Part shown: positions 1 through 1,543 of the stretch, in pieces
Numbering within the stretch: the first letter of the stretch is position 1
How the letters are laid out: each line of letters begins with the position of its first letter
Assembly: GCF_003334255.1 (NCBI RefSeq)
Contig: NZ_QOWU01000155.1
Source: Escherichia coli
GTDB taxonomy: Bacteria > Pseudomonadota > Gammaproteobacteria > Enterobacterales > Enterobacteriaceae
DNA: 1,543 bases
Direction: 5' to 3' (one strand)
Translations under genes and position numbers: made by a program
The notes under the pieces: model-generated
The model's database searches: none
What the model saw: the letters and a program-made list of their open reading frames with translations, nothing else
Told to the model about the DNA's origin: nothing

Positions 1-62
1 AATCGGTGGAGCTGCATGACAAAGTCATCGGGCATTATCTGAACATAAAACACTATCAATAA
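1..62 (+). CDS. Possible 3' end of an upstream protein-coding gene (partial; ...SVELHDKVIGHYLNIKHYQ*)
   Basis: Frame 3 is the only + frame open from the window edge; it runs from nt 3 to a TAA at 60..62, while the other two + frames hit stops at 17..19 and 40..42. The stop lies 21 nt before the ORF1 start, an operon-like spacing. Only 19 codons are visible, so this is weakly supported. Confidence 0.25.
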   Translation, partial: SVELHDKVIGHYLNIKHYQ

Positions 63-83
63 GTTGGAGTCATTACCGTAGAT

Positions 84-479
84 ATGAAGGGAACGAAAAA
101 CGCCTTTGGTTTAGGTTCTGCGCCTAATGGACAAAAAATTGGCGCTGCATCCATTGGTATTGACAGGTCTAATGGTGGGATTCACGCGGCGGACGATACA
201 GGTGAAATTCCTGTCGACCTGATTCAAACTGACCACTGGTCAGCAGCGCCCCCCACATGGAAAGCCTCATCTAATGGCGCATTCTGCTCGCTGACAAGTT
301 GCTCAGCAATCGAGCGCGGTTATTCTGTTGCAAAAACAGGGGAACTGACACCTGTTGCCATTACAGCGGTCACCTTCCCGTTACTGATTGATGCTGCGGT
401 AAATGACAATACTATTCTTGGTTCTGATGAAACGATCAAACTGGATGGTAACGTCACTATCAGCGTTCAGTATTTATAA
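84..479 (+). CDS. Hypothetical protein, 131 aa; possibly fimbrial-subunit-like, but no signal peptide detected
   Basis: ORF from the six-frame track. The ATG at 84 is the first start after the in-frame TAA at 60..62. GGAG at 66..69 is a possible RBS, though the 14-nt spacer is long. The protein is rich in Gly/Ala/Ser/Thr/Asn, has two close cysteines (CSLTSC) and ends in an alternating-hydrophobic strand with a penultimate Tyr (VTISVQYL), loosely like the C-terminal strand of chaperone-usher pilins. The N-terminus (MKGTKNAFGLGSAPNGQK...) is not hydrophobic and does not look like a Sec signal peptide. Confidence 0.55.
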   Translation: MKGTKNAFGLGSAPNGQKIGAASIGIDRSNGGIHAADDTGEIPVDLIQTDHWSAAPPTWKASSNGAFCSLTSCSAIERGYSVAKTGELTPVAITAVTFPLLIDAAVNDNTILGSDETIKLDGNVTISVQYL

Positions 480-650
480 GAACTTGTAATACAGTTTTTA
501 TTTTTACGCATTAACCAGTTAGCTATAACTCGGACAGATTATGCCCTATGACATGGTCTGTCTTAATCAATCTCATCGCAAACAGTGCATAACATATATT
601 AACAATATGTTTCTGCGTTATTTATCATTATTACAGGAGTTTTAATTTAA
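480..650 (+). promoter_or_regulatory. AT-rich intergenic region upstream of the chaperone gene; candidate promoter and RBS
   Basis: 171-bp non-coding, visibly AT-rich spacer. RBS AGGAG at 635..639 sits 11 nt before the ATG at 651. A candidate sigma70-like promoter is TTAACA (599..604), an 18-nt spacer, then TATCAT (623..628), but such matches arise easily by chance in AT-rich DNA. A short inverted repeat ATATT-AAC-AATAT lies at 596..608. Confidence 0.3.
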
Positions 651-1325
651 ATGCTCAGACACATTACATTCACTGTATTTATAACAACATCAATGAATAC
701 CTTAGCCACAGGGATGGTTCCTGAAACATCAGTATTGCTGGTTGATGAAAAGCGTGGTGAAGCTAGTATTAATATTAAGAATACAGATGATCATCCTTCA
801 TTGCTTTACACCACCATTGTTGATTTGCCTGAAAGCAATAAATCAATTCGTTTAATCCCGACTCAGCCCGTTATTCGTGTTGAAGCCGGTCAAGTACAAC
901 AGGTTCGATTTTTACTTCAGGCGACTGTTCCTCTGCAATCAGAAGAGCTGAAACGCGTAACGTTCGAAGGTATTCCACCAAAAGATGACAAGAGCAGCAG
1001 AGTTACTGTTTCAATTCGTCAGGATCTACCTGTACTGATCCACCCGGCTTCCCTGCCGGAAGAGCGAGAGACCTGGAAATTCCTGGAATGGCGTAAAAAT
1101 GGCGACCAAATTGAGATTAGCAACCCCAGTAATTATGTCGTTCGTATGACCTTACAATTTAAAACGCTCCCTTCAGGAAAAACGGGGGCTATAAATAAGA
1201 CCTATTTTCTACCACACACCAGTACAACTACTGCATTAACAAACGCTACGGATACAAAAGTCGAGTTTTACCCAGCCAGCCGATATGGTTATCGCGGTAA
1301 TAAATATGTCACTGACTTAAAATAA
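651..1325 (+). CDS. Periplasmic pilus (fimbrial) assembly chaperone, PapD-like fold; divergent, possibly alternate (CS1/CFA-I-like) or archaic clade
   Basis: ORF from the track, 224 aa. A TAA at 648..650 sits immediately upstream in frame, so the start at 651 is unambiguous, and it has an AGGAG RBS. N-terminal signal peptide MLRHITFTVFITTSMNTLA. By-eye matches to PapD-family chaperone motifs: LIPTQPVIRVEAGQVQQVRFLL (cf. PapD ATPPVQRLEPGAKSMVRL), FEGIPPK (cf. REIPP), RVTVSIRQDLPVLIHPASLP (the alternating G1 donor strand, cf. LQIALQTKIKLFYRPAA) and ISNPSNYVV (cf. IENPTPYYV in the C-terminal domain). Size and two-domain layout fit the family. Confidence 0.75.
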   Translation: MLRHITFTVFITTSMNTLATGMVPETSVLLVDEKRGEASINIKNTDDHPSLLYTTIVDLPESNKSIRLIPTQPVIRVEAGQVQQVRFLLQATVPLQSEELKRVTFEGIPPKDDKSSRVTVSIRQDLPVLIHPASLPEERETWKFLEWRKNGDQIEISNPSNYVVRMTLQFKTLPSGKTGAINKTYFLPHTSTTTALTNATDTKVEFYPASRYGYRGNKYVTDLK

Positions 1326-1345
1326 CTTTGCCTGGAGCGACAAGG

Positions 1346-1471
1346 ATGTTAAAAAAAACGTTACTGGCCTACACCATTGGTTTTGCCTTTTCTCCCCCAG
1401 CCAATGCAGATGGTATAGAGATTGCCGCTGTTGATTTTGATCGGGAAACATTAAAATCACTAGGTGGGTGA
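1346..1471 (+). CDS. Short signal-peptide ORF (41 aa), probably the 5' end of the next pilus gene (usher or subunit), ended by an in-frame TGA; possible pseudogene or readthrough
   Basis: ATG at 1346 lies 20 nt after the chaperone stop, with GGAG at 1334..1337 as RBS (8-nt spacer). Translation is MLKKTLLAYTIGFAFSPPANA|DGIEIAAVDFDRETLKSLGG*, a canonical Sec signal peptide with an A-x-A cleavage site. TGA is at 1469..1471. The same frame continues open from 1472 to the window end (CCQLTDLVYDGVFEVLQWLLFLSA). This ORF is not on the supplied track; I translated it by hand. Confidence 0.4.
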   Translation: MLKKTLLAYTIGFAFSPPANADGIEIAAVDFDRETLKSLGG

Positions 1472-1543
1472 TGCTGCCAACTTACTGATTTAGTGTATGA
1501 TGGTGTTTTTGAGGTGCTCCAGTGGCTTCTGTTTCTATCAGCT

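Follow-up and report, generated by a model that had tools for sequence, protein, structure and literature searches.

Homopolymers in the signal-peptide codons of a pilus-biogenesis gene are known from Neisseria pilC, in which a poly(G) tract of 10 or more G lies within the part encoding the signal peptide and switches at ~1e-3 to 1e-4; ON and OFF forms of such tracts coexist in every population. Phase variation of E. coli fimbriae is known from fimS inversion and from pap Dam/Lrp methylation, mechanisms that are recombinational or epigenetic and act on promoters. For poly(A), a 5′ tract has been described in inlA of Listeria monocytogenes, where A7 is in frame, A6 leads to an 8-aa product, and the A7/A6 tract frequencies are 5.5e-7 and 3.9e-8 (PMC2831843). 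Orsi, Bowen & Wiedmann 2010 put forward a "5′ homopolymeric tract" model of gene inactivation, 5′ poly(A) tracts being generally over-represented (PMC2831843). Productive slippage has been documented mainly for runs of 9 or more A/T (Baranov et al. 2005, PMC1088944), and the E. coli indel rate climbs exponentially with run length (PMC8510543).

The tract treated here is an A8 run at the start of the fimbrial usher gene yhcD, contained in the window, by which we mean the whole 1,543-nt stretch of E. coli DNA that was analyzed. Its closest analogue is inlA (PMC2831843). Both genes carry a poly(A) run of 7-8 nt in the first codons for a secreted, surface-related protein, and both have natural -1 alleles, of at least two independent origins, that truncate the product almost at once; the inlA pattern of a 6-8 nt poly(A) run within the first 10% of the coding sequence, with independent -1 alleles, is thus present in yhcD. 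Unlike inlA, yhcD belongs to a Gram-negative host and encodes the usher of a cryptic operon, its in-frame allele makes up 97%, and it is cut by an insertion sequence in the window. With Neisseria pilC, yhcD shares a homopolymer in the signal-peptide codons of a pilus-biogenesis gene, where a change of one base in either direction alters the frame, but in yhcD the tract is an A8 close to fixation. The fimS and pap systems share with yhcD the species and the chaperone-usher type of fimbria, with ON/OFF control known for fimS and pap; no promoter inversion or methylation features of that kind are visible in the window. Like the slippage sites treated by Baranov et al. 2005 (PMC1088944), yhcD has an A run with an A_AAA_AAA heptamer in a coding region, but unlike the productive ones it has neither a second ORF nor a conserved out-of-frame product.

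The features of the window are as follows:
1..77, + strand: right (3′) end of an IS1, at the contig end, equal to the last 77 bp of a 768-bp IS1A copy at 100% identity
78..479, + strand: 3′ fragment of gltF, a DUF1120 putative fimbrial subunit gene cut on its 5′ side by IS1, placed by collinearity with K-12
651..1325, + strand: yhcA, intact, encoding a PapD-like periplasmic chaperone of 224 aa, from the ORF listing and the RefSeq annotation
1334..1337, + strand: putative GGAG Shine-Dalgarno of yhcD, 8 nt 5′ of the ATG, read from the sequence
1346..1466, + strand: first 40 codons (+1 nt) of yhcD, beta-class fimbrial usher, the match to K-12 yhcD ending at 1466
1351..1358, + strand: A8 homopolymer (TTA AAA AAA ACG), also an in-frame A_AAA_AAA heptamer, likewise read from the sequence
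1467..1543, + strand: left (5′) end of a second IS1 copy, inserted in yhcD, equal to the first 77 bp of IS1A at 100% identity

The order along the window is therefore IS1 end, gltF 3′ part, yhcA, yhcD codons 1-40 and IS1 start. Both 77-bp stubs match the ends of the 768-bp IS1A and the two copies have the same orientation; the RefSeq annotation beneath the 1..77 match reads "IS1-like element IS1A family transposase". Because the two stubs are of exactly 77 bp, a typical assembler k-mer overlap, the window suggests a complete short-read contig broken at a repeat (k = 77). Between the stubs, positions 77-1466 are collinear with K-12 gltF-yhcA-yhcD at 99.9% identity, with only two differences across 1,390 bp, and a megablast search of 5,426 complete E. 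coli genomes aligns them at 99.9-100% to chromosomal gltF-yhcA-yhcD. The arrangement of the window in one piece was absent from all 5,426 genomes in that search, and the exact yhcD::IS1 junction was not found among species-representative genomes; the draft assembly GCA_965136505.1 contains an identical contig. An Rfam scan of the window gave no matches.

Two details of the intervening DNA can be recorded here. A C6 run at window positions 249-254 stems from an A->C SNP relative to K-12 (GCGACCCCC to GCGCCCCCC), which belongs to the two differences just mentioned and exchanges Thr for Pro in GltF. A 34-aa ORF (MPYDMVCLNQSHRKQCITYINNMFLRYLSLLQEF) at 541-645 (+), in the gltF-yhcA spacer, has a gene call in some assemblies; it is probably spurious and has no family match on record.

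By gene order and domain content, the locus is assigned to the beta-class chaperone-usher operon gltF-yhcADEF. A PapD-like chaperone and DUF1120 subunits (gltF/yhcF) lie downstream of gltBD, and the order gltB-gltD-gltF-yhcA-yhcD-yhcE-yhcF is kept in all fetched genomes. An identical 224-aa yhcA product carries PF00345 PapD_N, and the full-length yhcD orthologue, of 793 aa, has all three usher domains of Pfam (PapC_N, Usher and PapC_C). The sequence-only reading of this DNA had made the gene that opens with the A8 run a pilus component, which needs correction: yhcD encodes the usher, the assembly pore, and no structural pilus subunit. The GC content of the yhc genes is 42-45% vs 56-57% for the adjoining gltBD, and gltF-yhcADEF forms an IS-rich, AT-rich island adjoining GC-rich gltBD. 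The yhc operon has been reported as restricted to phylogroup A and is considered cryptic, in K-12 through an insertion sequence (yhcE::IS5); its deletion in ETEC gave no adhesion phenotype, and yhcD has a premature stop in at least one ETEC strain (PMC5216030). The pseudogenization of cryptic chaperone-usher operons described there concerns this same locus, and the window adds IS1 insertions in gltF and yhcD.

Of gltF, which has 254 aa in K-12, the window retains the last 133 codons, the first 121 having been lost to IS1. The yhcD product begins MLKKTLLAYTIGFAFSPPANA and continues with DG after a cleavage site judged by eye; this is a typical signal peptide, as the sequence-only reading had supposed, and its predicted coding region is 1346-1408. 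The yhcD frame then enters IS1 and stops at 1469-1471, giving 41 aa, so that the usher is reduced to its signal peptide and 19 residues, vs 793 residues at full length. Reversed copies of IS1 sit at this yhcD position in other samples (L060, 2365-2417; L061, 574-1341, where the element is an IS1 variant 91% identical and is followed by unrelated DNA), and either orientation at this site leads to the same 41-aa product. IS1 at one site in two orientations suggests an IS1 hotspot or an IS1-mediated inversion or rearrangement. As gltF is intact in L059 and L060, the gltF::IS1 of the window is a separate event.

The A8 run itself, correctly placed by the sequence-only reading at 1351-1358 in codons 2-5, takes in the third base of codon 2, all of codons 3 and 4 and the opening base of codon 5 of the ORF starting with the ATG at 1346. 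It is the longest homopolymer of the window. Its presence is not statistically remarkable for an AT-rich (42% GC) window: dinucleotide-preserving shuffles hold a mean of 0.23 A8/T8 runs per window, with at least one in 30/200 (15%). Across 40 kb of K-12 there are only two A8 runs, both inside yhcD. In the source genome the length of the tract is irrelevant, because IS1 cuts yhcD after codon 40 and a second IS1 cuts gltF; the tract cannot switch anything there and has no function.

We took the census of tract lengths with a 90-bp query centered on the tract, searched against the 5,426 complete E. coli genomes. It matched 1,135/5,426, at one site each and always on the chromosome, with the following alleles:
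A8, exact match: 1,099 genomes
A7, perfect full-length match: 27 genomes (29 in the ≥99% identity band)
A9, perfect match: 1 genome

The A8 allele thus makes up 96.8% of carriers, a count inflated by many K-12 laboratory derivatives, and tract variants about 2.6%. A variable-gap pattern scan found A8 in 21/21 metagenome contigs and in 1 MAG contig, a scan that confirms the majority state only. The MAG contig (JAIJJM010000202.1, 5 kb, with E. coli yhcA-yhcD) is filed under "Collinsella sp." and is almost certainly a binning contaminant.

Several expectations of the sequence-only reading, which had called the tract slippage-prone and had proposed looking for A7/A8/A9 polymorphism among isolates, held up in this census. 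Both A7 (27-29 genomes) and A9 (1 genome) occur among the 1,135 carriers, with at least five origins as set out below, and a change of one base in either direction does shift the frame very early: the A7 allele encodes MLKKRYWPTPLVLPFLPQPMQMV, of 23 aa, and the A9 allele a 29-aa peptide. Upstream, neither allele has a restart ATG, GTG or TTG for the YhcD frame. The further suggestion of phase-variable ON/OFF expression is not supported, with A8 in the great majority of carriers and yhcD already cut by IS1 in this genome. The tract has the frame-altering position, the length polymorphism among isolates and the recurrent independent changes of a phase-variable locus; it lacks an otherwise functional target gene, since yhcD and gltF of the window are IS1-cut and the operon is reported cryptic. 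Two observations had been named as speaking against a switch, an A8 that is invariant across isolates and a gene that is a pseudogene regardless of tract length. The former does not apply, as the tract varies among genomes, while the latter does, through the IS1 cut. In the three papers mentioning the yhc locus, we found no description of poly(A) frameshift alleles or of their recurrence.

Long-read assemblies err most often in the length of homopolymers, and nearly all the variants here are -1 deletions, so that the A7 and A9 alleles might be sequencing or assembly errors in long-read genomes, over a tract that is really invariant. We compared 40 kb around the tract in 25 A7 genomes, the A9 genome and K-12. 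In about 38 kb of the 25 A7 genomes, no other homopolymer indels were found except 2-3 intergenic ones shared by lineages, and the second A8 run (yhcD nt 206-213) and an A7 run (nt 305-311) are unchanged. Random miscalling would strike both A8 runs alike, yet miscounts of the other run, 200 bp away and of equal length, number at most 1/1,134 genomes, which marks the variants as genuine mutations. Moreover, A7 co-segregates with SNP haplotypes. Seven A7 genomes of one cluster (cluster I) share 18008T, 32217T and 36040A and come from China, Egypt, Switzerland, Japan, the USA and Australia; that genomes from different laboratories and countries have A7 together with the same SNP markers points to inheritance and not to random error. 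On these three grounds (the second-A8 control, the indel audit and the haplotype co-segregation) we rejected the explanation by error, which is hardly credible.

Four deep haplotype groups account for the 25 A7 genomes: a K-12-like group (15), cluster II (8), L020 and L056, which are 79-131 SNPs apart in about 38 kb. In the K-12-like group, the derived alleles 25363A/28996C of K-12, itself A8, are also found in three A7 genomes, and seven other A7 genomes form a clade marked by 32217T/36040A. The exact local haplotype of cluster II is shared by 51 A8 genomes and that of cluster I by at least 32. A single clonal origin of A7, which we considered, was rejected given the four deep haplotype groups and the A8 genomes with the same local haplotypes. 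With four deep groups and two clades within the K-12-like one, parsimony requires at least five independent A8->A7 events, in addition to one A8->A9 event. In no case did an A8 genome fall inside an A7 clade, in a comparison that covers 40-kb haplotypes of A7 genomes.

The second A8 run of yhcD provides an internal comparison. It occupies nt 206-213 (K-12 segment 20241-20248; GGC GAA AAA AAA GGC), 200 bp downstream of the 5′ run, and lies beyond the IS1 cut, hence its absence from the window. It is A7 in 1/1,134 genomes and never A9, on both flank haplotypes. A candidate A9 at this second tract, in strain 162.2, was rejected: the extra base lies between the tracts, not inside. Counted as genomes, the variants number 28-30 at the 5′ run vs 1 at the internal run. 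Counted as events they are at least six vs one (one-sided binomial ~0.06, not significant), so that much of the excess in genome counts is due to clonal inheritance, and the excess of events at the 5′ run is only suggestive. Pure length-dependent slippage with neutrality would lead one to expect similar numbers at both runs, and the asymmetry observed counts against a reading as decay. What asymmetry remains could mean that frameshifts very early in the gene are better tolerated or are selected for.

The rest of the operon is damaged in many strains. Insertion sequences in gltF, yhcA, yhcD or yhcF are present in 10/25 A7 genomes; in the other 15/25 the operon is otherwise intact, so that reversion could restore function there. 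Lesions occur in A8 genomes too, among them K-12 yhcE::IS5, MB20 yhcD::IS1, and a frameshift plus a nonsense mutation in strain 162.2. In different strains gltF-yhcADEF has been struck by IS1, IS2, the IS3 family, IS5, ISEc16 and ISEc33. The yhcD of strain 162.2 has a 1-bp insertion and a GAA G->T nonsense mutation beside the A7 run (L025, about 1141), and that of strain PF9285 has an in-frame 3-bp deletion at about 22334-22337 of the K-12 frame.

We think it probable that the tract is a slippage-prone run of Lys-Lys signal-peptide codons in a decaying AT-rich operon, that is, a recurrent pseudogenizing hotspot and not a programmed switch. The A8 would be a by-product of coding, arising from the rare Leu codon TTA, two AAA Lys codons and ACG, with the two Lys codons belonging to the positively charged n-region of the signal peptide. 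Since no longer homopolymer occurs in the region, it would act as a hotspot of replication slippage, a mechanism that we infer, and in natural E. coli it has lost one A at least five times and gained one A once. Each length change stops the usher after 23 or 29 residues and would create a null allele, and the A7 and A9 alleles would behave like the IS1, IS2, IS3, IS5 and ISEc33 insertions and the nonsense mutations of the operon, in a decay that is presumably neutral or near-neutral. The IS lesions found together with A7 in 10/25 genomes are expected for decay rather than for switching. In the source genome the tract has stayed at A8, with yhcD already killed by IS1 after codon 40 and gltF by the second IS1.

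The 5′ A8 could instead be a contingency locus, a reversible slipped-strand switch that sets the Yhc usher and its beta-class fiber ON (A8) or OFF (A7/A9) in phylogroup-A E. coli, the lineage of the window having later lost the system to IS1. Such a switch would be in keeping with length changes in both directions, including at least five independent -1 events, and with a 5′ tract far more variable than the internal tract of the same length, as if early frameshifts were selected; the operon remaining otherwise intact in 15/25 A7 genomes also fits, as does the proposal that poly(A) tracts at the 5′ end serve generally to switch genes off (PMC2831843). We nevertheless regard it as unlikely. A8 in 96.8% of carriers is not a balanced mix of ON and OFF, no reversion was detected in the 40-kb haplotypes of A7 genomes, and A8 is short for a switch in mismatch-repair-proficient E. 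coli, the comparable inlA tract having rates of only about 5e-7 to 4e-8 (PMC2831843). Its target is a cryptic operon whose deletion has no phenotype (PMC5216030) and which bears many irreversible lesions, and yhcD of the window is itself irreversibly dead.

Alternatively, the A7 and A9 alleles may not be null, and the tract may attenuate expression through -1 ribosomal slippage, RNA-polymerase slippage or initiation at a CTG six codons downstream. In the A7 allele, TTA AAA AAA CGT brings the heptamer into the correct register, and a -1 slip on A_AAA_AAA would restore the exact wild-type protein. In genes of E. coli, frameshift errors at heptamers of Lys codons reach measurable levels, and some bacteria show transcriptional slippage on A runs of 8-9 (PMC1088944), so A7 alleles may be slightly leaky; that same work sees selection against slippage at 9 nt, and not at 7-8, in many genomes. 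No stimulatory element is evident beside the tract, and a paper on non-programmed frameshift suppression (PMC10861913) gave nothing usable on A runs. The CTG finds some support in the NCBI pipeline, which in A7 and A9 genomes calls a 787-aa product from it (e.g. WP_032142439.1), but it has no properly spaced Shine-Dalgarno, and a start there would drop the charged n-region. Attenuation of this kind is thus a poor prospect as an explanation, and it has no bearing on the window, which lacks the gene body. The two ideas can also be merged, into a selected and reversible low-rate switch or attenuator of the Yhc fiber at which early frameshifts are favored over those of the internal run for a clean OFF, perhaps with low-level rescue by -1 slippage on A_AAA_AAA; this we consider improbable. 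The reading that we retain is that of a recurrent pseudogenizing hotspot.

The re-called CTG start (fetched-locus position 20053/20055) has a practical side. The pipeline treats A7 and A9 yhcD as intact and sets no pseudogene flag, so that the frameshift is invisible in the annotation; most likely the re-call masks a pseudogene, because the new start is without a suitably spaced Shine-Dalgarno and the charged n-region is removed. Since the NCBI annotation hides these frameshifts, adhesin-typing tools that score yhcD as "present" may overcount functional loci.

For the window itself the tract is of no consequence, the usher gene having already been destroyed. A selected reversible switch, if true, would give E. 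coli its first chaperone-usher system under slipped-strand control, and reversible switching of the tract would make slipped-strand mispairing a third mechanism of fimbrial phase variation in this species; the evidence favors plain decay. More generally, a cryptic fimbrial usher gene of E. coli has a recurrent natural frameshift site in its short 5′ poly(A) run.
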